A stretch of 64,000 bases of DNA from an uncultured Bacilli bacterium (GTDB lineage Bacteria; Bacillota_I; Bacilli_A; RF39; UBA660). The DNA is taken from positions 300-64,299 of the forward strand of contig CALVHI010000001.1 of assembly GCA_944327365.1 (NCBI GenBank), written 5' to 3'. Every line of letters begins with the position of its first letter. Within the stretch, counting starts at the first letter, position 1. Position numbers and translations under genes: made by a program. This document shows, piece by piece, positions 3,456 through 63,465 of this stretch. The notes beneath the pieces were generated by a model. The model was not told where the DNA came from, searched no databases, and worked only from the letters and a program-made list of their open reading frames with translations.

Positions 3456-4880
3456 ATGACCAAAAGAAAAGAAAAAATAATTCCATTTTTTAAATTTTTA
3501 ACAATTGCTATGGCAATCATCACAATAATTACTTTAGGATTATTTAAATTTATTGATATTTTACCAGGAGAATATTTCTTAGTATTATGTATTTTATTAA
3601 TTTTATTTGCAGCAATTTTTTCTTCTCTAATATTAGCAAAAAGAGGAGTTAAGAAAAGAGCGATAGGCACAGTTCTTTCTATTTTATATATTATTTTATT
3701 AGTTTTAATTATTATCTATGAATTAAATACAATTGGTTTTTTGAAAAAATTAGGCTTTCCTAATTACAAAACAGAAAACTACAGTGTTTTAGTATTAGAA
3801 AATAGTAATATTGAAGAATTAAAAAATTTAGATAAAAAAACCATAGGAAGTTTAGAATTTAATTCAGAAGGACTTAAAAAGGCCAAAAAACACATTGAAA
3901 AAGATATTTCACCTGAATTTATCACGAATGATAATATAACAGAGTTAAAAGAAACATTTTTGGCAAATGAAGTAGAAGGAATGTTAATTGAAAATTCTAT
4001 ACTTACCTTAATCAATGAAAGTGATCCAAAATTTAATAAAGAATACAAAGTAATTGATGAATTTTCTATCGATATCCAAACTGAAGATACAGCTGAAGAA
4101 GTTGATATAACCCAACAAGCTTTTAATGTCTATATCTCAGGAATAGATACTTATGGTTTGGTAAGTAGTGTATCTCGTAGTGATGTAAACATGGTAATAA
4201 CAGTTAATCCCAAAACTCATAAAATTCTTATTACTTCAATTCCAAGAGATTACTACGTAACATTAGCAAGTAAAAATGCCAAAGATAAATTAACTCATGC
4301 TGGAATATATGGTATTGAAGAAAGTGTAGCGACCATAGAAAATTTATTAGACATTGAAATTAATTATAATGTAAAAGTAAATTTTAGCTCAGTTATAGAT
4401 ATTGTTGATGCATTAGGAGGTGTAAATGTTTATTCTAAATATAGTTTTACTTCTCAAGATGGCTATGCATTTACCAAAGGTTATAACTTTGTTGATGGAA
4501 AAAAAGCTTTATCGTTTGTAAGAGAGCGTAAAAGCTTTAATGGTGGTGATAGAGTAAGAGTAGAAAATCAAGCAGCAATGATTGAAGCGATAATTAATAA
4601 AGCGATAAGCCCATCAATTATTACCAAATACACAAGTTTATTAAATGCTTTATCAGGGTCATTCATGACAAACCTAGAAACTAATGATATAACAGAATTT
4701 ATTAAGATGCAAATAGATAAAATGCCTAGTTGGGAAATAGAAAATATTAGTTTAAATGGTACAGATGCTCTAGATTATACATATTCTTATGGTGGAACAA
4801 AACTATATGTTATGTACCCAGATAATGAAACAGTAATAAATGCAACTACAAAAATAAATGAAGTTTTAAATTCCAACTAA
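3456..4880 (+). CDS. LytR-CpsA-Psr (LCP) family cell-envelope phosphotransferase
   Basis: N-terminal TM segment. LCP core NMVITVNPKTHKILITSIPRDYYV...THAGIYG...FVRER. Confidence 0.85.
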   Translation: MTKRKEKIIPFFKFLTIAMAIITIITLGLFKFIDILPGEYFLVLCILLILFAAIFSSLILAKRGVKKRAIGTVLSILYIILLVLIIIYELNTIGFLKKLGFPNYKTENYSVLVLENSNIEELKNLDKKTIGSLEFNSEGLKKAKKHIEKDISPEFITNDNITELKETFLANEVEGMLIENSILTLINESDPKFNKEYKVIDEFSIDIQTEDTAEEVDITQQAFNVYISGIDTYGLVSSVSRSDVNMVITVNPKTHKILITSIPRDYYVTLASKNAKDKLTHAGIYGIEESVATIENLLDIEINYNVKVNFSSVIDIVDALGGVNVYSKYSFTSQDGYAFTKGYNFVDGKKALSFVRERKSFNGGDRVRVENQAAMIEAIINKAISPSIITKYTSLLNALSGSFMTNLETNDITEFIKMQIDKMPSWEIENISLNGTDALDYTYSYGGTKLYVMYPDNETVINATTKINEVLNSN

Positions 4881-10401: not shown

Positions 10402-11499
10402 TTAGATTTTTTTTAAATTTATTAAAATTCCTAAAAACATAAAATAAACAATAATATTAGTTCCACCATAACTAACAAATGGAAGAGGAATTCCAATAAT
10501 TGGCAGAAGGCCTAAATTCATTCCAATATTCTCAATCTGAGCAAAAATAAACATCAAAAGAAAAGAGGCAATAAACATTCGATATTTTTTTGATTTAGTT
10601 TGAAATAATTTTACTAAAAAATAAAAATTTAACCAGAAGAAACTAATAAGAATAAAAATAAAACTAATAATTCCCAAATTACTAATAGATAGAGCAACAA
10701 TAAAATCAGTAGGAGCCTCTGGTATATATACTCCCGAACTACCCGTAAAAAAATGAGCTGTTCCAATTGATATTAAAGCTCGATCTAATTGAAAAGAATC
10801 TTGATAAACAAAAGTTAAAATACGATCTACTCGATAAAAAAAGCTTGTCCCAATTAAATCAACTAATAAGTCTTGCTTAAAATAATATAAATAGCAAAAA
10901 ACTCCCAAAAATAAAATTAATCCAATACCCAAAAATACATACCATCTAAAACGAATATGATAAACCAAAATAGTGCCAAGCATAATAAGAAAATAAATAA
11001 TAATAGCCCCTGTATCTGGCTCTAAAAAGACGAATAAAGAAGGAATAAAGGTAAGAATAAAAACTTTTATAATGCCCTTAAATTCTTGCTTCATATTTCC
11101 TCGCTTTTCTTTCGATAAAACTTCACTTAAGTAAAGTGCTAAACTAAATTTCATGAGTTCACTAGGCTGAAAAGAGAAAAAAGGGAAAGTAAACCAAGCC
11201 CTAGAGCCATTAATCGTAGTTCCCCAAAATAAAACCAAGATTAATAAAAGGACGTTAATAAAATAGATATATTTAGCATAACTAAAAAAGAATTTAGGTT
11301 TTAACAATCCAAAAACAAATATCACAAAAAAGCCCAAACTAAACCATATAGTTTGCTTTAAAAAATAACTTTCATAAGCATCACTATCTTTAATTAACAT
11401 CATATTAATTAAAGAAATACCAGCTAATAGGAAAATAGGAATAAATAATAATATTTTATCTTTAATTAATTTCTTTTTCATACTATTATTATGTTTCAA
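10402..11499 (-). CDS. ftsW: SEDS family peptidoglycan glycosyltransferase (FtsW/RodA)
   Basis: Polytopic membrane protein with SEDS C-terminal signature NLGLLPIIGIPLPFVSYGGT. Confidence 0.8.
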   Translation of the reverse strand: MKHNNSMKKKLIKDKILLFIPIFLLAGISLINMMLIKDSDAYESYFLKQTIWFSLGFFVIFVFGLLKPKFFFSYAKYIYFINVLLLILVLFWGTTINGSRAWFTFPFFSFQPSELMKFSLALYLSEVLSKEKRGNMKQEFKGIIKVFILTFIPSLFVFLEPDTGAIIIYFLIMLGTILVYHIRFRWYVFLGIGLILFLGVFCYLYYFKQDLLVDLIGTSFFYRVDRILTFVYQDSFQLDRALISIGTAHFFTGSSGVYIPEAPTDFIVALSISNLGIISFIFILISFFWLNFYFLVKLFQTKSKKYRMFIASFLLMFIFAQIENIGMNLGLLPIIGIPLPFVSYGGTNIIVYFMFLGILINLKKI

Positions 11500-12489: not shown

Positions 12490-12535
12490 TTGCTTTTTTC
12501 TTATTTTTATCATATAATTAAAACAGGTGATAAAT

Positions 12536-13858
12536 ATGATTAAAAATAAAAAAGTATTAATATTGGGGATGGCTAAAAGTGGTTATGAAGTAGCAAAATT
12601 AATAAGCAAAGGAAATAATGAAATTATAGTTGTAGATAGTAAAGAGCAAGAGCAAAGCAAAATAGAGGAGCTAATTAAATTAGGAATTGAATTTTTAAAG
12701 ACTGATAAACCGGAGACAATACTAGATAAAACTTATGATGTATTAATAAAAAATCCTGCCGTATTTCCTAATCATCCTTGTGTATTAAAAGCCAAAGAAT
12801 TAAATATACCTGTTGTAAATGAAATGGAAGTAGCATATCATTATATTAAATATCCTGTAAAAATAGTAGGAATAACGGGAAGTAATGGAAAAACAACAAC
12901 AACAACTTTGATTTATGAAGTTCTAAAAAAAGCAGGGATACCGGTAAAATTAGGAGGAAATATTGGAACTCCTCTATCAAAGATAGTTAATGAACTGGAA
13001 GAAAATGATATTTTACTATTAGAAATATCTGATCATCAATTAATAGACATGAAAAACTTTAAAACAAATATCAGCATTCTTACCAATCTCTGTCCAACCC
13101 ATTTAGATTATCACGGCACTTATGAATCTTATAAGAATGTTAAAAAGAAAATCTTTAATCATCATACCAACAAAGACATAGCAATCATCAATAAAGCAAA
13201 TGAAGACTCTGTAAAATTAACTAAAGACATTTTATCGACCAAAATCTATTTTAATGATGATGTAAACTATTATACGAAAGAAGAAATATATATAGATAAT
13301 ATACCTGTTATAAGCACTAAAGACATATTAATAAAGGGAAATCATAACTATGAAAACATACTCATCACATATTTAGTTGCCAAAATCTTAAAGATTGACT
13401 TTAAATATGTTAGTGAAGTCTTAAAAGAATTTAAAGGTGTTGAACATCGCATAGAATATGTAGGTACTATAAAGGAAGTTGCTTATTATAACGATTCTAA
13501 ATCAACCAATCCAACTGCAACAATAACAGCTCTAAAAAGTTTTGATGAAAATATTCATTTAATTTTAGGAGGAATGGATCGCAATCAAGATTTTCATGAT
13601 CTTTATCCATACTTATCAAAAATAAAATGCATTTATGCGATAGGAGACGTAAGAAATCGAATTATGGATTATGCAAAAGAAGAAAATATTAAGGCTTATG
13701 CTTTTCAAACCTTAAAAGAAGCTATGGAAAAAATAAAAGGAGAAGTAGTAAGTGGAGATATCGTTTTATTAAGTCCCGGATCAGCCTCATGGGATCAATA
13801 TCAAAAATTTGAAGATCGTGGTGATGAGTTTAAAAAGATAGTTAAAAGTTATGAGTAA
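12536..13858 (+). CDS. murD: UDP-N-acetylmuramoyl-L-alanine--D-glutamate ligase
   Basis: GITGSNGKTTTTTLI P-loop and Mur ligase architecture. Start set to ATG 12536, 5 nt after AGGTGA; the tracked GTG 12527 is less likely. Confidence 0.9.
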   Translation: MIKNKKVLILGMAKSGYEVAKLISKGNNEIIVVDSKEQEQSKIEELIKLGIEFLKTDKPETILDKTYDVLIKNPAVFPNHPCVLKAKELNIPVVNEMEVAYHYIKYPVKIVGITGSNGKTTTTTLIYEVLKKAGIPVKLGGNIGTPLSKIVNELEENDILLLEISDHQLIDMKNFKTNISILTNLCPTHLDYHGTYESYKNVKKKIFNHHTNKDIAIINKANEDSVKLTKDILSTKIYFNDDVNYYTKEEIYIDNIPVISTKDILIKGNHNYENILITYLVAKILKIDFKYVSEVLKEFKGVEHRIEYVGTIKEVAYYNDSKSTNPTATITALKSFDENIHLILGGMDRNQDFHDLYPYLSKIKCIYAIGDVRNRIMDYAKEENIKAYAFQTLKEAMEKIKGEVVSGDIVLLSPGSASWDQYQKFEDRGDEFKKIVKSYE

Positions 13859-21371: not shown

Positions 21372-21398
21372 ACCCAAGTTATTCAAAATACTTGGGAT
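21372..21398. terminator. Bidirectional hairpin between convergent yneF and the XRE gene
   Basis: CCCAAGT tattcaaaat ACTTGGG. Confidence 0.35.
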
Positions 21399-21834
21399 TA
21401 TCTATTTTACCTAAAAGATAGTCAGCAGATATATGATATTTTTTACAAATAGTATAAAGAAAAGGGGTAGCAATAATGGCACGATTACTTTCATAATTGC
21501 CTATTGTTCCCTTAGAAACGTTTAATAATGTTGCTAATTTTTCCTGAGATAGTTTATTTTCTTTCCTAAATTCTTTTAATCTAGCTTTAACAATATTAAG
21601 ATCAATATCCTGATCTACATTTTGATATTGTTTCGTATCTGTTAAACCAAAAATATAATCAAGAGAAACATGAAAATAACTACATAAAAGATTTAAATGC
21701 TTGATAGGAATTATAGTATATTCTTTCTCAAAGTGATTAAAAGTTTGTTTGGTTACCCCAATAATTTGGCCTAACTGCTCCTGCGTTAAGCCATTTCTTT
21801 CTCTTAATGATCTAAGCTGTTTTCCATACATCAT
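21379..21834 (-). CDS. Double-HTH XRE family transcriptional regulator (module A)
   Basis: Two HTH_XRE domains (LTQEQLGQIIGVTKQTFNHFE; LSQEKLATLLNVSKGTIGNYE). Divergent from the downstream surface-protein gene. Confidence 0.8.
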   Translation of the reverse strand: MMYGKQLRSLRERNGLTQEQLGQIIGVTKQTFNHFEKEYTIIPIKHLNLLCSYFHVSLDYIFGLTDTKQYQNVDQDIDLNIVKARLKEFRKENKLSQEKLATLLNVSKGTIGNYESNRAIIATPFLYTICKKYHISADYLLGKIDNPKYFE

Positions 21835-21907
21835 TATATCACCTAAAACAATTTTCTCATACCCAATTTATTATTTTGCAATTAGTATCCTAATAATGAG
21901 AATTTTC

Positions 21908-21976
21908 TTGACTTTTTATCTAGCCCAATTTATAATTTAAATATAAGCTAGGAAACTCATCTATCATAGCTTATAT
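21908..21976 (+). promoter_or_regulatory. Consensus sigma-A promoter (TTGACT-17-TATAAT) plus a 10-bp perfect inverted repeat in the 5'UTR of paralog A
   Basis: TTGACT 21908-21913. TATAAT 21931-21936. ATATAAGCTA (21941-21950) / TAGCTTATAT (21967-21976). The same block recurs upstream of paralog C. Confidence 0.55.
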
Positions 21977-22023
21977 TTACACCTAAATGAATGAAGGTGT
22001 ACTTCACAGAAATGAGGTAAGTT

Positions 22024-23325
22024 ATGAAGTTCGAAGTATTAAAAAGAAGTCATTTAAAAAGAAATATTATCATAGGATTATTTGCAGTTGCTATCATATC
22101 AGCCACTGTTCTTAATTTTACTCAAGCTAAATACAGAGTAACAGAAAGTATACCCCTCATAAATGGAACTATCCATTATACCCCCTATGATTTAAACTTA
22201 GTAGCTATGTATCAACAAGATGAGACAGGTGAATATATAAGCATAGATACAGTACCAACAAGTGGATACACACTAAATGAGAGTGAAAGTTATTGTGAAA
22301 TAAATGATACAAAAGATAATACCATAACGATAGAATATCAAGATGGGAAAGTTAATTTTTTAGGTTTAATGAAAAAGGGAACGAAATGTTATTTATACTT
22401 TGATGAATATCAAGCTAAAGATATAATTCTAGCAGGAAAAGACATTAAAGAAAGAACTAGCTTTAATAGTGTACTTACAACCAATACAAATGGAATAATT
22501 TATCAAGAAGAAACAAGTGATGGAACAACTTATTACTTTGCCGGAGATACAGATGAAAACTGGGTATCTTTTGCTGGATATTATTGGCGAATCATAAGGG
22601 TAAATGAAGATGGATCAATAAGAATAATCTATAATGGAACAAGTACTAGTACAACCGGAAGTGGAACCCAACTACAGACAAGCGCATTCAATAGTTCGCG
22701 TGATAATAACGCCTATGTAGGATACATGTATACATTAAATAATGTCCATGGAACAGGAACAAGTAGTACAATCAAAGGAATACTAGATAATTTCTATAAA
22801 GATCATATCGCTGGAGAATATGAAGATTATATTAGTAAAGAAGCAGGATTCTGTGGAGATAGAACAAGAAGTACAAGTAGTAGTTCACTCAATAATTCAG
22901 GAGGAACGGGAACAACGGTAACCTATTATGGAGCATATATCAGATTAGCAAATAGTTCCAAAAATCCAACGTTTGAATGTAGTGATGAAGCATATGACTT
23001 GTATACCGTACAAGAAAGCAGTAAAGGGAATCATGCCTTAACGTATCCAATCGGCCTCATCACAGCCGATGAAGTAGCTTATGCCGGAGGAGTATGGGCC
23101 ACTAGCAATAGTAGTTATTACCTCTATAATGGAGAGTATTACTGGACCATGTCTCCGAATTACTTTGTTGACAATAGCGCTTGGATGTTGTCTGTGGATT
23201 CGGATGGCAATCTCCGCATCAACTACGCGGATCGCTCGAATGGCGTCCGCCCAGTATTAAATCTGGATGCTGGTGTAACAATAAAATCAGGAAATGGCAC
23301 AGCAGATTCTCCATTTGTAGTCTGA
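22024..23325 (+). CDS. Signal-anchored mosaic surface/secreted protein, paralog A (unknown family)
   Basis: N-terminus MKFEVLKRSHLKRNIIIGLFAVAIIS. Variable block about aa 55-135. Conserved blocks ILAGKDI.ERT.F...DGTTYYFAGDTDENWVSFAGYYW.IIR.NEDGS, GFCGDRT, TFEC, GLITADEV.YAGG, YWT.SP, GVRPVLNLDAGVT. Three paralogs in the window. Confidence 0.7.
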   Translation: MKFEVLKRSHLKRNIIIGLFAVAIISATVLNFTQAKYRVTESIPLINGTIHYTPYDLNLVAMYQQDETGEYISIDTVPTSGYTLNESESYCEINDTKDNTITIEYQDGKVNFLGLMKKGTKCYLYFDEYQAKDIILAGKDIKERTSFNSVLTTNTNGIIYQEETSDGTTYYFAGDTDENWVSFAGYYWRIIRVNEDGSIRIIYNGTSTSTTGSGTQLQTSAFNSSRDNNAYVGYMYTLNNVHGTGTSSTIKGILDNFYKDHIAGEYEDYISKEAGFCGDRTRSTSSSSLNNSGGTGTTVTYYGAYIRLANSSKNPTFECSDEAYDLYTVQESSKGNHALTYPIGLITADEVAYAGGVWATSNSSYYLYNGEYYWTMSPNYFVDNSAWMLSVDSDGNLRINYADRSNGVRPVLNLDAGVTIKSGNGTADSPFVV

Positions 23326-35897: not shown

Positions 35898-35974
35898 GGG
35901 CGCTTAGCTCAGTTGGTTAGAGCACCTGCCTTACAAGCAGGGGGTCATAGGTTCGAGTCCTATAGCGCCCACCA
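35898..35974 (+). tRNA. tRNA-Val (anticodon TAC)
   Basis: GGGCGCT acceptor stem, D-arm GCTCAGTTGGTTAGAGC, anticodon loop CTTACAA, T-arm GGTTCGAGTCC, ACCA. Confidence 0.9.
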
Positions 35975-35985
35975 TTGTTTTTTTT

Positions 35986-36061
35986 GCCGACATAGCGTAA
36001 CTGGCAGCGCAACTGACTTGTAATCAGTAGGTTGGGGGTTCGACTCCCTCTGTCGGCACCA
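35986..36061 (+). tRNA. tRNA-Thr (anticodon TGT)
   Basis: GCCGACA acceptor stem, anticodon loop CTTGTAA, T-arm GGTTCGACTCC, CCA. Confidence 0.85.
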
Positions 36062-36070
36062 TTTAATTAT

Positions 36071-36154
36071 GGGGAGATAGCGAAGTGGCCAAACGCGGCA
36101 GACTGTAAATCTGTTCCTTCGGGTTCCATGGTTCGAATCCATGTCTCCCCACCA
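36071..36154 (+). tRNA. tRNA-Tyr (anticodon GTA), long variable arm
   Basis: GGGGAGA acceptor stem, anticodon loop CTGTAAA, long variable arm, T-arm GGTTCGAATCC, CCA. Confidence 0.85.
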
Positions 36155-36163
36155 CTTTAATAT

Positions 36164-36239
36164 TGCCTCGTAGCCAAGTGGTAAGGCATCAGACTTTGAC
36201 TCTGACATTCCGCTGGTTCGAACCCAGCCGAGGCAGCCA
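36164..36239 (+). tRNA. tRNA-Gln (anticodon TTG)
   Basis: TGCCTCG acceptor stem, anticodon loop CTTTGAC, T-arm GGTTCGAACCC, CCA. Confidence 0.85.
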
Positions 36240-36244
36240 TACTT

Positions 36245-36320
36245 GGTTCGCTAGCTCAGTAGGTAGAGCATTTGACTTTTAATCAAAGGGTCGAGGGTTC
36301 GAATCCCTCGCGAGCCACCA
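36245..36320 (+). tRNA. tRNA-Lys (anticodon TTT)
   Basis: GGTTCGC acceptor stem, D-arm GCTCAGTAGGTAGAGC, anticodon loop CTTTTAA, T-arm GGTTCGAATCC, CCA. Confidence 0.9.
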
Positions 36321-39409: not shown

Positions 39410-40135
39410 ATGTTTATTGGTGAAAATCCCATTCATATTGAAGCAAGTGCTGATATAGCGCCAGTTGTATTAATGCCAGGAGATCCTCTAAGAGCCAAAT
39501 ATATAGCAGATACTTTCTTAAAAGATGCAAAATTAGTTACTAATATCCGAAATATGTCAGGATATACTGGTGAATATAAGGGGAATAAAGTAACTGTAAT
39601 GGCCCATGGCATGGGTATGCCTAGTGCTAGTATCTATGTTTTTGAACTAATTCATTTCTTTCATGTAAAAAAAATTATTAGAATTGGGACATGTGGTGCG
39701 GTTAGTGACAAGTGCAAAGTAGGGGATGTTATTTTAACGCAAAATATTTATTCTGAATCTAATTTTGCCTATACTTATAATAATTATGTTGGCAATGTAG
39801 TTGATGCAAGTGCTTCTTTAAATAAAACTATTTTAGATACTGCAAGAGAATTAAATGTTGATGTACACTATGGTATGACAACTACTATGGATGTATATGG
39901 CCCATATATTGATTATGAAAGAGTCCTAAATCGCATTCCAAGTGACTATGAGATTCTAGGGGAAGAAATGGAAGGATTTGGTGTATGTCATGTTGCAAAT
40001 ACTATGAATATAGAAGCAACGACTCTAATGACTGTAGCAGACTCTAAATTCTCTAAAATAGTTTTAACTCCAGAAGAAAGACAAACAAAATTAAATGATA
40101 TGATTAAATTAGGTTTAGAAGCTATTATCAAATAA
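39410..40135 (+). CDS. deoD: Purine nucleoside phosphorylase DeoD-type
   Basis: VVLMPGDPLRAKYIA.TFL...KKIIRIGTCGA closely matches DeoD. ATG 39410 after AGGTGG. Confidence 0.85.
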   Translation: MFIGENPIHIEASADIAPVVLMPGDPLRAKYIADTFLKDAKLVTNIRNMSGYTGEYKGNKVTVMAHGMGMPSASIYVFELIHFFHVKKIIRIGTCGAVSDKCKVGDVILTQNIYSESNFAYTYNNYVGNVVDASASLNKTILDTARELNVDVHYGMTTTMDVYGPYIDYERVLNRIPSDYEILGEEMEGFGVCHVANTMNIEATTLMTVADSKFSKIVLTPEERQTKLNDMIKLGLEAIIK

Positions 40136-40214: not shown

Positions 40215-40739
40215 TTATATATTCATTTTTTCTTTAATTTCTTGTACTTTCATTTTAATCTTTTTATCTCTCTTAATATTAGTATCAATATTACCAACAA
40301 TATAATCAGCACTAACACCAAAAGTTTCACATATCTGTTTTAAATCAGCAGTACTAATCATCATTTTCCCAATCTCATAATAACTAATACTACTTCTTTT
40401 TGTATCAATCTTAGAAGCAAACATTTCTTGAGTTAAACCTGCCTTTTTTCTAATCTCTTTTAATCTAAGCCCAATCTTTTTTAAATCCATATTTTCAATA
40501 TAATGATATGAATACTGATCAATAAAATCAATAATTCCTAACAAATAATCAATAGGAACCTGATATAAATAAGCAAGCTTAATAATCTGCCTTAAAGATA
40601 CATTAGTAATTCCATTCTCCCAGTTATTGATTAAACTACGTGATACATGTAGCATTGATGCTAATTCTTGTTGAGTATAACCAAACTTATCTCTTAAATG
40701 ATAAATCCTTTGTTCAATAATTGTTATATTTTTGTCCAT
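40215..40739 (-). CDS. Double-HTH XRE family transcriptional regulator (module B)
   Basis: Two HTH_XRE domains (YTQQELASMLHVSRSLINNWE; LTQEMFASKIDTKRSSISYYE). Divergent from paralog B. Confidence 0.8.
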   Translation of the reverse strand: MDKNITIIEQRIYHLRDKFGYTQQELASMLHVSRSLINNWENGITNVSLRQIIKLAYLYQVPIDYLLGIIDFIDQYSYHYIENMDLKKIGLRLKEIRKKAGLTQEMFASKIDTKRSSISYYEIGKMMISTADLKQICETFGVSADYIVGNIDTNIKRDKKIKMKVQEIKEKMNI

Positions 40740-40997
40740 ACCAACAGCTCACTTTATAAATAAAATCAATAACATTGTTTCATACTATTATAAATCGTAC
40801 TAATAATTGACACTAATACTCACTTAATGACACTAAAAATCACAAAATAGTTGAATTTTATTCAACAATACTGTATACTAGAAATATATCATAGACAAAT
40901 ATATGAGAAATAAAACAAGAAGTTTTGATAAGTTTTGTCGAATCACATGTATTATAAATAAATATATGCTATGATACTCAAGGGAAGAGGGAAGTCT

Positions 40998-42269
40998 ATG
41001 GAATTTGAAGTATTAAAAAGAAGTCATCTAAAAAGAAATATTATCATAGGATTATTTGCAGTTGCTATCATATCAGCCGCTGTTCTTAATTTTACCCAAG
41101 CTAAATACCGAGTAACACAAAGTATACCACTTGTAAACGGAAAAATAAACTATAATCCGGGAGATATTATTATATCTGCTTATTATAATGATGAACTATT
41201 AGCAACATTCCCAACCAAAGATAGTGAATATGCTGTAGAAAACATAACTTGTGATAATAACACAACAGCAACATTTGATAAAGATAAATGGCAAATAAAT
41301 ATAACAAACTTAGTAACAAAAGGAACAAAATGTGATGTGACATTTGTAGAAAAAGAATTAGCAAGTGAATCAATATTAGCCGGAAAAGACATTCAAGAAA
41401 GAACAGATTTTAGTACAACACTTACAACCAATACAAATGGAATAATTTATCAAGAAGATACAAGTGATGGAACAACTTATTACTTTGCCGGAGATACAGA
41501 TGAAAACTGGGTATCCTTTGCTGGATATTACTGGCGAATTATCAGGATTAATGAAGATGGATCAATAAGAATGATCTATAATGGAACAAGTACTAGTGCT
41601 ACCGGAGGTGAAACCCGACTACAGACAAGCTCATTCAATTATTCGAATGGCAATAATGCCTATGCAGGATACATGTGTACTTTAAATAGTGTCCATGGAA
41701 CAGGAACAAGTAGTACAATCAAAGGAATAGTAGATAATTTCTATCGAGATCAAATCGCTGGAGAATATGAAGATTATATTAGTAAAGAAGCAGGATTCTG
41801 TGGAGATAGGACCTCAACAACAACAAATGGTGGGGCACCAAATGATACAGGAGGGATAGGAACAACAACAACTTATTATGGAGCAAGATATCGGTTAGAC
41901 ACAAATAAAACACCAACGTTTGAATGTAGTGATGAAGCAAATGATTTGTATACCGCACAAGAAAGCAGTAAAGGTAATCATGCTTTAACGTATCCAATTG
42001 GACTCATCACAGCCGATGAAGTAGCCTATGCCGGAGGAGTATGGGATACTTATAATAGTAGTTATTACCTATATACCAGACAAAGCTACTGGACTATGTC
42101 TCCGTATAATTATAGCGGTGGTGCTAACGTGTTTCTTGTGTCTCACAATGGCGACCTCGGTAACTGGGGCGTGAGTAACACGGTTGGTGTGCGCCCAGTA
42201 TTAAATCTGGATGCTGGTGTAACACTAACCGGAAGTGGAACAACATCTGACCCTTATAGAGTAAATTAG
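40998..42269 (+). CDS. Signal-anchored mosaic surface/secreted protein, paralog B
   Basis: MEFEVLKRSHLKRNIIIGLFAVAIIS... Same conserved blocks as A and C with a distinct variable block. ATG 40998 after GGGAAGAGGGAAG. Confidence 0.7.
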   Translation: MEFEVLKRSHLKRNIIIGLFAVAIISAAVLNFTQAKYRVTQSIPLVNGKINYNPGDIIISAYYNDELLATFPTKDSEYAVENITCDNNTTATFDKDKWQINITNLVTKGTKCDVTFVEKELASESILAGKDIQERTDFSTTLTTNTNGIIYQEDTSDGTTYYFAGDTDENWVSFAGYYWRIIRINEDGSIRMIYNGTSTSATGGETRLQTSSFNYSNGNNAYAGYMCTLNSVHGTGTSSTIKGIVDNFYRDQIAGEYEDYISKEAGFCGDRTSTTTNGGAPNDTGGIGTTTTYYGARYRLDTNKTPTFECSDEANDLYTAQESSKGNHALTYPIGLITADEVAYAGGVWDTYNSSYYLYTRQSYWTMSPYNYSGGANVFLVSHNGDLGNWGVSNTVGVRPVLNLDAGVTLTGSGTTSDPYRVN

Positions 42270-45193: not shown

Positions 45194-46006
45194 TTATCTA
45201 AAATAAATAAAGATGAATATAGCTAAGAATACACAATAAATACTAAACTTCCATAAATTACCTTTTCGAACAATTTCACTTAACCATTGATAAGAGAAAT
45301 ATGTTACAATACCTGCCACAACCATACCTAAAAGATAAGGCATAAATACAGTACTTAAATTACCTGTTACAACAATATCTTTAACTCCAAGTATCATTGT
45401 TCCAACACTAATAGGAAAGTATAAAATAAATGTATATTTTAAAGCTGTACTTCTACTCATACCTACAAGCAAACATAAAACTAATGTTGTACCACTTCGA
45501 CTAATCCCTGGGAACAATGCAATAATTTGAAATAACCCTACAAAAAAAGCATCTTTTAAAGTAATATCATAATCATTTTTCTTTCCATTCTTATTTTTAA
45601 CAAGTAAAAGCATAAAAGCAGTAAGTAAAAAAGCAAATCCAAGAAGAGTAATATTTTGTAATTTATCTTCAATAATATCTTTAAGAAGCAATCCAGCAAT
45701 CCCGATTGGAATCGTTGAAACAAGAATAAACAAACAATATCGAAACTTCTTCTTATTTTCTTCTCTTGTCTCTTTCTTAAAAAGATAAGTAAAAAAAGCT
45801 TTTAATAAATCCCAAATATCTTTTCTAAAAATAAATAAAATAGCCAAGAAAGATCCAAAATTAGCAACAATCTCAAAATTAAGATCATTAAACATTTCGG
45901 AATTAAAAATGTTTTTAAATAAAAATATATGTCCACTCGATGAGACTGGTATCGGTTCAGTAAACCCTTGAATAATACCTAAAATAATATAAACCAAATA
46001 ATCCAA
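45194..46006 (-). CDS. uppP: Undecaprenyl-diphosphate phosphatase
   Basis: BacA/UppP motifs GISRSGTTLV and SSSGH in an 8-TM protein. Confidence 0.85.
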   Translation of the reverse strand: MDYLVYIILGIIQGFTEPIPVSSSGHIFLFKNIFNSEMFNDLNFEIVANFGSFLAILFIFRKDIWDLLKAFFTYLFKKETREENKKKFRYCLFILVSTIPIGIAGLLLKDIIEDKLQNITLLGFAFLLTAFMLLLVKNKNGKKNDYDITLKDAFFVGLFQIIALFPGISRSGTTLVLCLLVGMSRSTALKYTFILYFPISVGTMILGVKDIVVTGNLSTVFMPYLLGMVVAGIVTYFSYQWLSEIVRKGNLWKFSIYCVFLAIFIFIYFR

Positions 46007-58682: not shown

Positions 58683-58735
58683 CAAGGTATTTTATGCTAT
58701 AATCTATATGCATATTGAAGTATGTGCATAAATAT

Positions 58736-58842
58736 AAAAAAGCGGTGAATCCAGCCGTATAAATTGGAACTTAAAAAAGCGGTGAATCCAGCCATAAATT
58801 GGAACTTAAAAAAGCGGTGAATCCAGCCATAAATTGGAACTT
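58736..58842 (+). ncRNA. toxI: ToxI/AntiQ-like antitoxin RNA: three tandem 35-37-nt repeats plus a partial fourth
   Basis: AAAAAAGCGGTGAATCCAGCC(GT)ATAAATTGGAACTT x3, at 58736-58772, 58773-58807, 58808-58842. Promoter TTGATT-17-TATAAT at 58675-58703. Terminator and ToxN-family gene immediately downstream. Confidence 0.6.
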
Positions 58843-58853
58843 AAAAAAGTAGG

Positions 58854-58882
58854 TTAGAGACTCAACTCTAATCTTTTCTTTT
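58854..58882 (+). terminator. Rho-independent terminator between antitoxin repeats and toxin gene
   Basis: TTAGAG actcaa CTCTAA followed by TCTTTTCTTTT, as in toxIN loci. Confidence 0.5.
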
Positions 58883-58928
58883 AAGCGCTTTTATTGTATA
58901 ATTATATTAGTTACAAGGGGGAATAGAA

Positions 58929-59438
58929 ATGAGAAATTTTAAAATTGTACGTGTTGATTCAGATTATTGTGATTATTTAAGAAATTTTGATTCAAAAGTA
59001 ATTTATAACAGAGGAGTTAAAATTTTAAGACCATTTATAGGAGTTTTATTTAAAATTGATAAATGGGAATATTTTGCTCCTTTGTCAAGTCCTAAGCCAA
59101 AACATAAATCAATGAGAAACACTATAGACTTTTTTAAAATAAAAAATGGCGAATTAGGAGCAATTAATTTTAATAACATGATTCCTGTTACTAAGGATAA
59201 TTATATTGAAATTGATTTATACACAGAAGCAATAGATTTTAAAGAAAGAAAGTATCAAAAAATGTTAAAGGAACAGTTAGCATGGTTAAATGCTAATAAG
59301 CATCAAATTAAAGATCATTCTTATAAATTATATACAAAATATAAAAATAATAAATTATCATCAAGTATTAGACTTAGATGTTGCAATTATCCACTGTTAG
59401 AAAGTAAAAGCATAGAATTTAATAAAATTCACAATTAG
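58929..59438 (+). CDS. toxN: Type III toxin-antitoxin system toxin, ToxN/AbiQ family endoribonuclease
   Basis: 169 aa; FIGVLFKIDKWEYFAPLSSPKPKH...GAINFNNMIPV...RLRCCNYPLLE matches the ToxN/AbiQ fold family. Preceded by tandem repeats and a terminator. Confidence 0.8.
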   Translation: MRNFKIVRVDSDYCDYLRNFDSKVIYNRGVKILRPFIGVLFKIDKWEYFAPLSSPKPKHKSMRNTIDFFKIKNGELGAINFNNMIPVTKDNYIEIDLYTEAIDFKERKYQKMLKEQLAWLNANKHQIKDHSYKLYTKYKNNKLSSSIRLRCCNYPLLESKSIEFNKIHN

Positions 59439-61514: not shown

Positions 61515-61988
61515 CTATAAATACTTAGGACAATCAATTTTTCCTAAAAGATAATCAGCGCTAACATGATATTTACTACAAATCATATAAAGAAAAGGAG
61601 TACCAATTAAACTTTTACCATTTTCATATATACTCCATGTTGGTTGATCAATATGTAAGAACATAGAAATTTGCTGTTGAGTAAGTTTTTTTTCTTTTCT
61701 AAATTCTTTTAATCTTTTTGAACATAATTCCAAATCAAAGCCTGATTTTACTTGATAAGATTGATTCACAGAGCCAAAAAGGTAATCTATACTTAATTTA
61801 AAATAATCTGCAAATGAAATTAATCTTTTAAGAGGAATAATATTATTATTTGATTCCCACATAGCATAACTACTTCTAGTAACTCCCAATATTTTAGCTA
61901 TATCGTTTTGACTCATACTATTTTGTAATCTTACTTCTTTAATTCTTTTTGTGCTAAACATAATTTTCACCTTTTTAAATTGTCTCAT
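61515..61988 (-). CDS. Double-HTH XRE family transcriptional regulator (module C)
   Basis: Two HTH_XRE domains; C-terminal half closely related to the module A regulator (TPFLYMICSKYHVSADYLLGKID). Confidence 0.8.
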   Translation of the reverse strand: MRQFKKVKIMFSTKRIKEVRLQNSMSQNDIAKILGVTRSSYAMWESNNNIIPLKRLISFADYFKLSIDYLFGSVNQSYQVKSGFDLELCSKRLKEFRKEKKLTQQQISMFLHIDQPTWSIYENGKSLIGTPFLYMICSKYHVSADYLLGKIDCPKYL

Positions 61989-62035
61989 TTATTAAAGAAA
62001 ATAAAAATTATATGTCAGAAATATCTATATTTTTC

Positions 62036-62104
62036 TTGACTTTTTATCTAGCCCAATTTATAATTTAAATATAAGCTAGGAAACTCATCTATCATAGCTT
62101 ATAT
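62036..62104 (+). promoter_or_regulatory. Consensus promoter TTGACT-17-TATAAT plus 10-bp inverted repeat, duplicate of the module A control region
   Basis: TTGACT 62036-62041. TATAAT 62059-62064. ATATAAGCTA 62069-62078 / TAGCTTATAT 62095-62104. About 125 bp nearly identical to 21901-22023. Confidence 0.55.
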
Positions 62105-62151
62105 TTACACCTAAATAAATGAAGGTGTACTTCACAGAAAAGAGGTAAGTT

Positions 62152-63465
62152 ATGAAATTTGAAGTATTAAAAAGAAGTCATTTAAAAAGAAATATTATTA
62201 TAGGAGTATTTGCAGTATTCATAATAAGTGCATGTATATTAAACTTTACTCAAGCTAAATATAGAGTAACAGAAAGTATACCCCTCATAAATGGAACCAT
62301 CCATTATACCCCCTATGATTTAAACTTAGTAGCTATGTATCAGCAAGATGAGGCAGGTGAATATGTTGAGATAGAACAAATGCCTAGTAGTGGTTATACT
62401 ATCAATACAGAAGAAAGTTATTGTACTGTAGATGGCAATAAAGATAATACAATAAGCTTATATACAAACGAAAACGGAGAACATGTTATAGCCAAATTAA
62501 AGAAGGGAAGTAAGTGCTATTTATATTTTGATAAATGTCAAGCTAAAGATGTAATCCTAGCAGGAAAAGACATTCAAAAAAGGACAGATTTTAGTACGGT
62601 ATTAACAACAAATACTGATGGAATAATTTATCAAGAAGAAACAAGTGATGGAACAACTTATTACTTTGCCGGAGATACAGATGAAAATTGGGTATCCTTT
62701 GCCGGCTATTATTGGCAAATCATCAGAATTAATGAAGATGAAAGCGTTCGTTTAATTTATGCAGGCACAAGCCCTTCAATGGGCAATACAGATGACCAAA
62801 TAAGTGCAAGTGCATTCAATAATACAGTTAGCGACAATGCACATATAGGATATATGTTTGGAAGTTTGAATGCGTCAAACTATAATTTGACGCATTCAAA
62901 CATAAATAGTAGTACTATAAAAGCCGTTATAGATAATTGGTATCAAAAAAATATATTAAATGCAAACTATGATCGGTATATTAATACCGAAGCAGGATTC
63001 TGTGGGGATAGAACTCCATACGTTTATAGGTCTGGGCTTTATATATCAGGAGGAGGTACTGGAACAATAGCGACCTATTATGGAGCCTTTGTAAGATTAA
63101 ATATAAATAAAATCCCAACGTTTGAATGTAACAGTAGCAATGACTTGTATACAGTAGATGAAAGTAGTAAAGGATTAACCTATCCAGTCGGACTCATCAC
63201 AGCAGACGAGGTGGTTTATGCGGGGGGAACGTACAAACAAACTAATAATAGTTTTTATCTTAACACAGATAGTACATATTGGACTTTATCACCGTTTGAA
63301 TACGATGGAGACAGTTCCAGAATATTTTATGTGTCAGAAGGATACTTAAACGATTGGCATGGCTCTTATGATGCTTTTGGCGTCCGTCCGGTTATAAACC
63401 TGGATGCTGGTGTAACAATAAAATCTGGAAATGGCACAGCAAATTCACCTTATAAAATATCTTGA
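62152..63465 (+). CDS. Signal-anchored mosaic surface/secreted protein, paralog C
   Basis: First ~65 codons almost identical at DNA level to paralog A. Distinct variable block. Conserved C-terminal blocks through GVRPVINLDAGVTIKSGNGTA. Confidence 0.7.
   Translation: MKFEVLKRSHLKRNIIIGVFAVFIISACILNFTQAKYRVTESIPLINGTIHYTPYDLNLVAMYQQDEAGEYVEIEQMPSSGYTINTEESYCTVDGNKDNTISLYTNENGEHVIAKLKKGSKCYLYFDKCQAKDVILAGKDIQKRTDFSTVLTTNTDGIIYQEETSDGTTYYFAGDTDENWVSFAGYYWQIIRINEDESVRLIYAGTSPSMGNTDDQISASAFNNTVSDNAHIGYMFGSLNASNYNLTHSNINSSTIKAVIDNWYQKNILNANYDRYINTEAGFCGDRTPYVYRSGLYISGGGTGTIATYYGAFVRLNINKIPTFECNSSNDLYTVDESSKGLTYPVGLITADEVVYAGGTYKQTNNSFYLNTDSTYWTLSPFEYDGDSSRIFYVSEGYLNDWHGSYDAFGVRPVINLDAGVTIKSGNGTANSPYKIS

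Follow-up and report, generated by a model that had tools for sequence, protein, structure and literature searches.

The stretch of DNA analysed here, hereafter the window, comprises 64,000 nucleotides from an uncultured Bacilli bacterium of the RF39 lineage (GenBank assembly GCA_944327365.1, contig CALVHI010000001.1, positions 300 to 64,299) and has a G+C content of 28%. Its plus strand carries three paralogs (A, B, and C) of one gene for a predicted secreted binding protein, each with a divergently oriented regulator gene located approximately 190-260 bp upstream (Table 1). The sequence-only reading that preceded our analysis had pointed to the near-identical promoters, 5' untranslated regions (5'UTRs) and first codons of paralogs A and C, and had proposed recombination or gene conversion among the copies. 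We confirm the observation, and the data argue that the shared stretch is probably a 5' expression cassette common to the whole gene family, kept extra-similar in A and C by purifying selection together with gene conversion between paralogs.

Table 1. Features of the three modules in the window (window positions; SD, Shine-Dalgarno sequence; HTH, helix-turn-helix; ORF, open reading frame).
Feature	Position	Strand	Description
Regulator of locus A	21379..21834	-	tandem-HTH, 151 aa
Segment of A matching C	21903..22233	+	counterpart of C 62031..62361
Paralog A	22024..23325	+	433 aa; identical to database protein P0003
Regulator of locus B	40215..40739	-	tandem-HTH, 174 aa
B-type upstream region	40830..40997	+	second conserved leader class, unrelated to the A/C type; core GTTTTGAyAnnnTTTGTCGAA
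Paralog B	40998..42269	+	423 aa from ATG 40998; longer ORF from 40971
Regulator of locus C	61515..61961	-	two HTH_3 domains; 148 aa from ATG 61961; longer ORF to 61988
Segment of C near-identical to A	62031..62361	+	promoter, leader, SD, codons 1-70; broken by patch 62206-62245
Paralog C promoter	62036..62064	+	sigma-70 type: TTGACT 62036-62041, 17 nt, TATAAT 62059-62064; 11/12 consensus
Paralog C leader (predicted 5'UTR)	62066..62151	+	invariant AGCTAGGAAACT near predicted 5' end; SD 62142-62146
Paralog C	62152..63465	+	437 aa
Diverged helix patch	62206..62245	+	codons 19-32, membrane helix; C differs from A at 17/40 positions
Core block	62618..62687	+	encodes IIYQEETSDGTTYYFAGDTDENW; A 22490-22559, B 41437-41506

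The modules lie approximately 20 kb apart, all in the same orientation and amid housekeeping genes; genes neighboring the loci encode a P-type ATPase, ABC transporters, enolase, ClpB/ClpC-like ATPases, FtsY and FtsK. Between the A and C loci the unit of similarity is exactly the regulator plus the gene (61519-63449 versus 21386-23312). All three regulators contain two stretches matching HTH_3 (77-112 bits, cut-off 23) and are predicted to be XRE-family proteins with two HTH domains. As the earlier reading had stated for A and C, they are only moderately similar, with a protein identity of 43% between A and C and 33% between A and B.

In an ungapped comparison with the offset fixed at 40128, 285 of 310 positions (91.9%) agree between 62036-62345 in C and 21908-22217 in A. 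The interval given earlier for A marks the right stretch, with a start (21901) that is off by a trivial 7 nt. The similarity is highest upstream of the start codon, where 119 of 121 positions (98%) are identical between 62031-62151 and 21903-22023, a region that spans the -35 and -10 boxes, the leader and the SD. In the coding sequence (CDS) the near-identity of the first codons is also real, but it is not continuous: the identity is 51/54 over nt 1-54 and 112/116 over nt 95-210 (62246-62361), corresponding to 94-97% over codons 1-18 and 32-70, and drops to 23/40 (58%) over the intervening nt 55-94, the helix patch. The flanks of the shared stretch are no more than 57% (the following 119 nt) and 42% (the 69 nt upstream of 62031) identical. 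A sliding-identity comparison of the loci shows near-identity confined to blocks instead of uniform along the genes, with A and C at approximately 50-70% further downstream, in line with the sharp divergence that had been described.

Paralog B complicates this picture. In the helix patch, the A counterpart (22078-22117) matches B at 39 of 40 positions, and a patch of the C type is also present at the B locus in another strain. Over the 70 nt of the core block A and C do not differ at all and B is nearly the same, and roughly over A 22604-23100 paralog B is A-like (82-95%). The idea of homogenized 5' ends thus holds for A and C, but not for the family in the window as a whole, as B has another leader class and the helix patch itself has been swapped.

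The promoter of C has its counterpart at 21908-21936 upstream of A, and its hexamers are nearly invariant across 48 loci of other genomes. Transcription is predicted to start approximately 7 nt past TATAAT, just before AUAAGCUAGG, and the mRNA, as read off the promoter, would begin just before AUAAGCUAGGAAACU. The 95-nt leader of C is predicted to fold at -22.4 kcal/mol (z = -4.6 versus shuffles), with a first hairpin formed by arms at 62066-62081 and 62092-62107, and a second one in which TGAAG (62120-62124) and CTTCA (62130-62134) enclose a loop. The 5'-terminal hairpin is made up of AUAAGCUA and UAGCUUAU, and the family consensus of the second hairpin, UGAAG-N5-CUUCA, directly precedes the SD. 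In a second leader subtype, the partner of the invariant GCUAGG is a different one, a CCUAGC some distance away, and the two enclose an inner hairpin. Hairpin 1 has a loop of 12 to 17 nt, depending on the sequence, and single changes are mostly G-U compatible. The variable loop, the switching of pairing partners and the G-U compatible changes, none of them significant, hint at a function as RNA over a DNA operator with fixed spacing; a DNA operator is nevertheless possible, as copies of CTAG also occur in the promoter spacer (TCTAGC in C). Other possible partners of the CUUCA element are UGAAG in codons 3-5 and the SD region and, speculatively, such alternative pairing might serve as a translational switch or as a 5' stabilizer. 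A search of Rfam 15 gave no family, either across the window with gathering scores as the limit or in 61950-62250 with E <= 1. A mini-ORF starting at the conserved leader AAATGAAG was rejected as a candidate, as its frame is not conserved (in L046, for example, a stop occurs at codon 3).

The upstream region of the A/C type is found, with 75-90% nucleotide identity, at 48 of approximately 80 paralog loci in about 12 genomes. Its conservation begins abruptly at about -45 and comprises, in order, the near-invariant blocks TTTTTCTTGACTTTT, TATAAT, TATAAGCTAGGAAACT, and AAATGAAG followed after 5 nt by CTTCA. At all 45 of the A/C-type loci with enough flanking sequence, a divergent tandem-HTH gene is present. 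The B-type class has a promoter-like sequence of its own, TTGA-N-TGTATAnT, followed by the invariant core (Table 1) and ATG.A motifs, and is kept at approximately 14 loci of other genomes (e.g., L056, L011, and L031); approximately 17 loci have neither class. At one locus (L112, ERZ1090861 NODE-27870, approximately positions 195-370) a full A/C promoter with hairpins is followed by the B-type GTTTTGACATGTTTTGTCGAA before the start codon, a composite which suggests that the two leader elements are modular.

The family as a whole is large. Protein searches returned at least 3776 matches, none of them named, and a scan of one genome per species with the N-terminal peptide pattern MxFEVLKRSHLKRNIIIG identified 113 relatives in about a dozen uncultured genomes, with 6 to 13 or more copies per related genome. 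The relatives are labeled Mycoplasma sp. CAG:776, uncultured Mycoplasmatota or Bacilli, and derive from the human gut. A 26-nt motif covering the -10 box and part of the leader located 28 further loci in metagenomes; the regulator is present at 26 of these, and a gene start lies at most 200 nt downstream at 17, most of the others having little stored downstream sequence. In viral contigs the 16-nt leader core had seven matches, all without promoter, regulator or gene context; we take them for chance, and they give no sign of a phage origin of the module. Two relatives (P0005, 758 aa, and P0013, 724 aa) have two tandem DUF6273-like bodies behind a single N-terminal region, which indicates that duplication of the whole domain also occurs in the family.

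The AlphaFold model of the C protein (mean predicted local distance difference test score of 85) consists of a membrane helix (residues 11-32), a disordered linker (33-52), a beta-sandwich (57-128) and a DUF6273-like globular domain (140-437). The Pfam model DUF6273 (PF19789) reaches 21.1, 23.1, and 19.4 bits for A, B, and C, respectively, against a gathering threshold of 23.5, and only over the C-terminal 50 residues or so; some homologs have a precomputed PF19789 match. Predicted phage structures (DUF6273 or receptor-binding proteins) match the model at E-values of 1.7e-5 to 4e-4 with low template modeling (TM) scores, the phage DUF6273 matches at 1.7e-5 to 6e-5 having TM scores of 0.26-0.32. 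In the Protein Data Bank, a sequence search with the family profile gave nothing at E <= 1 and a Foldseek search with the model nothing significant, and no NCBIfam model matches the A, B, or C proteins. In phage proteins, DUF6273 has been reported as a ligand-binding domain that resembles C-type lectins (PMC10743442). Going by the predicted N-terminal helix and the lectin-like fold, the products may be surface-exposed or secreted binders. The homogenized segment of the module is the promoter, the leader, the export or anchor signal and the linker, and what is exchanged between copies is the membrane helix, the sandwich at the N-terminal end and portions of the binding domain. A lipobox-like I-S-A-C occurs only in paralog C (62215-62232, codons 22-27), A and B having no Cys in the helix, and relatives with a C-type helix patch (such as P0004 and P0008) also have it, so that a swapped helix cassette might change the mode of membrane attachment.

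Exchange among the three copies was assessed in a codon alignment of A, B, and C with 437 informative sites, at which two copies agree against the third. These sites form 173 runs, versus 261 +/- 9 expected in random order. Runs extend to 32 sites for A=C, where 20000 permutations never exceeded 13, and to 25 sites for A=B, with a permutation maximum of 22. Long A=C and A=B tracts alternate along the gene, and the number of synonymous substitutions per synonymous site (dS) varies more than tenfold among segments. For the A-C pair, dS is 2.3 over codons 19-33 but 0.17 over codons 34-66; the conserved core (codons 141-185) has a value of 0.40, and the remaining body lies at 0.8-1.6. For the A-B pair, codons 19-33 give 0.09 and codons 186-300 give 0.23. 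Different ancestry of the segments can account for a nearest relative that alternates along the gene; rate variation or selection alone cannot. The leader points in the same direction: of 32 leader columns that vary freely among family members, A and C have the same base at 31, while the leaders of other genomes agree with A at a mean of 35% and a maximum of 62% of the same columns. Selection alone does not explain this identity. The pattern of a near-identical leader with a body of 60-71% identity recurs in pairs of copies within one metagenome-assembled genome (MAG) which, scored for leader, first 195 nt, and rest, gave 100/100/71% (L010/L046), 98/85/62% (L067/L068), and 96/84/61% (L022/L062).

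Shuffling of cassettes among loci is also seen directly in public metagenomes. A 2.7-kb scaffold from another study (L084) represents the C locus, matching the window up to the scaffold end including the downstream ATPase gene, with 93.5% identity over 1.9 kb. From about nt 560 of the CDS onward it is of the C type at 309 informative sites without a mismatch, but its codons 15-165, approximately, are of the A type at 81 informative sites. The right breakpoint of this tract lies within the core block, and the allele has a unique stretch of approximately 60 nt with an 18-nt insertion that is found in none of A, B, and C. At the B locus, contigs of 19 and 36.6 kb from two samples (L085 and L086), 97.7% identical to the window over 9.3 kb, are patchworks that start with B-type upstream sequence (135 sites), change to the C type in the helix patch (nt 72-112) and to the A type in the N-domain (nt 225-346), and return to the B type in the 3' half (92 sites). 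Database relatives of C (P0002, P0004, P0008, and P0009) are mosaic proteins that combine A, B, and C blocks; in exact look-ups, no source contigs of A (P0003) and P0004 were on record. The breakpoints fall within blocks that are identical in all three paralogs, namely nt 10-30 of the CDS and the core (22490-22559 in A), as expected of homologous recombination. In the variable part of gene C, a 38-nt near-perfect palindrome (62864-62901, 94.7% self-complementary) is present that also occurs in the L084 allele and is absent from A and B.

Our data are consistent with the following model, to which we assign a probability of roughly 80%. The module consists of a tandem-HTH regulator transcribed in one direction and, in the other, a gene for a protein with helix or signal, linker, beta-sandwich and DUF6273 domain. 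The stretch shared by A and C would be the cassette of this gene family, made up of a near-consensus promoter, a leader of approximately 85 nt that opens with AGCTAGGAAACT and has two possible hairpins, a ribosome-binding site, and the codons of helix and linker. Purifying selection on cis-regulatory and export signals would keep this cassette at 75-90% identity even across species, and recent homologous recombination between dispersed paralogs would add to the similarity of A and C, with short identical blocks acting as crossover points and tracts of roughly 40-450 nt moved between copies. The same recombination would have made the bodies mosaic, A resembling C in some tracts and B in others, and would give rise, from strain to strain, to new combinations of alleles at a single locus. 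The result is probably a diverse set of binding proteins, either at the surface or secreted. The original suggestion of recombination or gene conversion among the copies is in this respect supported by four lines of evidence: the clustering of runs, the heterogeneity of dS, the leader columns, and the recombinant alleles at orthologous loci.

Several observations weigh against this model. All sequences come from short-read metagenome assemblies, and L084 is short and begins inside the leader; its chimeric structure might conceivably reflect the route of an assembler across shared blocks, though the unique stretch of approximately 60 nt is present. A pair from different genomes (L007/L009) has 97% identity in the leader and 74% in the body, which shows that within-genome conversion is not required for a conserved leader to occur together with a fast-evolving body. 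Three copies reveal neither the direction of the transfers nor when they happened, and the true donors may be unsampled paralogs of the same genome. With regard to the hairpins, there is almost no covariation in their support, as both arms are almost invariant and only two pairs are double-changed, in a single sequence.

Four other explanations were considered. Strong purifying selection on promoter, leader and signal, with no exchange between the copies, would account for a cassette with invariant motifs that is conserved across species, and for an N-terminal peptide conserved enough to be used as a search pattern. We nevertheless regard it as very improbable as a sole cause: it leaves the identity of A and C at family-variable leader positions, the low A-C dS in codons 34-66 compared to 1-2.3 elsewhere, the switch of nearest relative between C and B, and the recombinant alleles at orthologous loci without explanation.

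An equally slim chance is given to a recent duplication of the whole module, followed by very fast diversification of regulator and body with an unchanged cassette. The similarity unit, which is exactly regulator plus gene, and orthologue-like pairs of related MAGs such as L007/L009 fit this explanation. However, synonymous sites in the body are near saturation against 2 differences in 121 leader positions, the regulators have diverged as described, and A shares young tracts with B (dS of 0.09 and 0.23). A dN (nonsynonymous counterpart of dS) much larger than dS, with a low dS in the body, would favor duplication; the opposite was found. Uniform identity along the gene pairs, as a simple recent duplication would give, is likewise not what we see, as dS ranges from 0.09 to more than 2 among segments.

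Programmed switching, in which a site-specific recombinase would act on the 5' region or this region would itself serve as a movable expression site, similar to the vsp, vpma, and vsa systems of Mycoplasma, appears still less probable. A conserved 5'UTR and signal-peptide region is a hallmark of such systems (PMC2268961): in vsp of Mycoplasma bovis and vpma of M. agalactiae these parts are conserved within the family, as in the modules described here, and the mature parts are unrelated. In contrast to those families, which are clustered, with one active promoter, inversion by an adjacent recombinase and lipoprotein products (features we checked and found absent here), complete consensus promoters precede both A and C, the upstream region of B belongs to a separate conserved class, and the copies are dispersed on the same strand among housekeeping genes. 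No recombinase was detected among the scanned or annotated genes near the loci (only part of the window ORFs was scanned), no inverted repeats flank the promoter, and the promoter and 5' coding part contain no simple repeats or homopolymer tracts of the kind that signals phase variation. A lipobox of the vsp/vpma type is absent as a general feature. Breakpoints, moreover, vary between alleles and fall in generic identity blocks.

An assembly artefact, in which reads of different loci or strains were joined to produce the identical stretch or the mosaic alleles, is the least probable explanation: contigs of other samples do break exactly here (L083 begins 114 nt before B, and L084 begins 50 nt before the gene), showing that repeats disturb assembly, but A and C lie on one contig, 40 kb apart and with different unique flanks, the C locus with leader and flanks and the B locus were each assembled independently elsewhere (L001 and L082; 99.93% over 8.8 kb and 100% over 4.1 kb, respectively), the mosaic at the B locus was recovered twice on long contigs, which makes a pure artefact unlikely there, and a mis-join would rearrange flanks and not create similarity. 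For locus A, exact look-ups found no independent assembly. The shared cassette at these loci would explain the contig breaks in these organisms.

A cassette shared by dispersed, recombining paralogs has parallels in other bacteria. The opa genes of Neisseria are dispersed, complete and independently promoted copies, with a conserved 5' part and framework and variable cassettes that are reassorted by homologous recombination; their products are beta-barrels of the outer membrane, and a pentamer repeat within the signal-peptide codons turns them on or off. The modules described here resemble them in being dispersed, self-promoted copies in which the alleles at one locus are a mosaic of other loci, but have no pentamer repeat, encode a DUF6273 fold, and have a divergent tandem-HTH regulator for each copy. 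For the erp (ospE/F-related) genes of Borrelia with their upstream homology box (UHB), a conserved upstream region and leader peptide precede divergent mature proteins and recombination among members is reported in work cited by PMC10016077, and the family in the window shows the same combination. In contrast, erp genes are located on cp32 prophage plasmids, encode lipoproteins and share trans-acting factors, whereas each copy here has one adjacent regulator. In the tandem lpl lipoprotein genes of Staphylococcus aureus the conserved unit is reported to consist of the intergenic region and the 5' part of the next ORF, with central parts that vary (PMC2568036). The modules are similar in that the conserved unit spans intergenic sequence and the 5' part of the ORF ahead of a variable center, but they are dispersed instead of in tandem, and their conserved unit ends at the -35 box.

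The likeness to phage DUF6273 receptor-binding proteins and targets of diversity-generating retroelements (DGRs) lies in the predicted fold, which has phage DUF6273 proteins as its only structural matches. Here, diversity arises by recombination among chromosomal paralogs and the N-terminal part is a membrane helix and not a set of tail-fibre modules. Comparison of the C locus with the window gave only the A and B loci and the internal palindrome, and no DGR template repeat; no reverse transcriptase was found among the scanned window genes.

The kind of process, a mosaic multigene family of surface proteins, is known, and the module and its leader are new. We know of no other family in which each copy is strictly coupled to a rapidly diverging tandem-HTH regulator and, in addition, has a structured leader in common with the others. 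Tentatively, and with little confidence, the module could be seen as a regulator-gated system of variable adhesins. The invariant leader, with AGCUAGGAAACU, the hairpins, and CUUCA pairing either with the upstream UGAAG or with the SD and start region, would then be an undescribed cis-regulatory RNA or operator common to dozens of paralogs. Each regulator might bind the locus-specific region of approximately 65 bp upstream of the -35 box, where the tracts stop, so that one or few paralogs would be expressed through a network of transcription factors without rearrangement of DNA, while recombination reshuffles the binding domains.

The bacteria that carry these modules are common uncultured members of the human gut community with small genomes, and very little is known of their response to pressure from host or phage; to judge by this family, they appear to invest heavily in variable binders, at the surface or secreted. 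The 26-nt leader motif, which matched only such modules, provides a handle for finding every copy in metagenomes.

Several other features of the window were recorded. Cell-wall genes are located at 478-1233, 3456-4880, 10402-11499, 12527-13858, and 45194-46006, the set comprising an M23 peptidase with a peptidoglycan-binding domain, LytR-CpsA-Psr, FtsW/RodA, a Mur ligase, and BacA; their presence indicates that the organism is walled, despite the Mycoplasma and Mycoplasmatota labels of its relatives. Five tRNA genes are clustered at 35898-36317 on the plus strand and one is located at 2640-2723 on the minus strand. An ORF at 1675-2103 matches PF18812 (PBECR3, a phage Barnase-EndoU-ColicinE5/D-RelE-like nuclease) and may encode a toxin domain. 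A type III toxin-antitoxin locus spans 58735-59438: a 35-nt unit repeated 3.2 times in tandem (97% matches) at 58735-58849 is directly followed by a gene (58929-59438) with a match to PF13958 (ToxN_toxin), the layout of a ToxI-like RNA repeat with ToxN.

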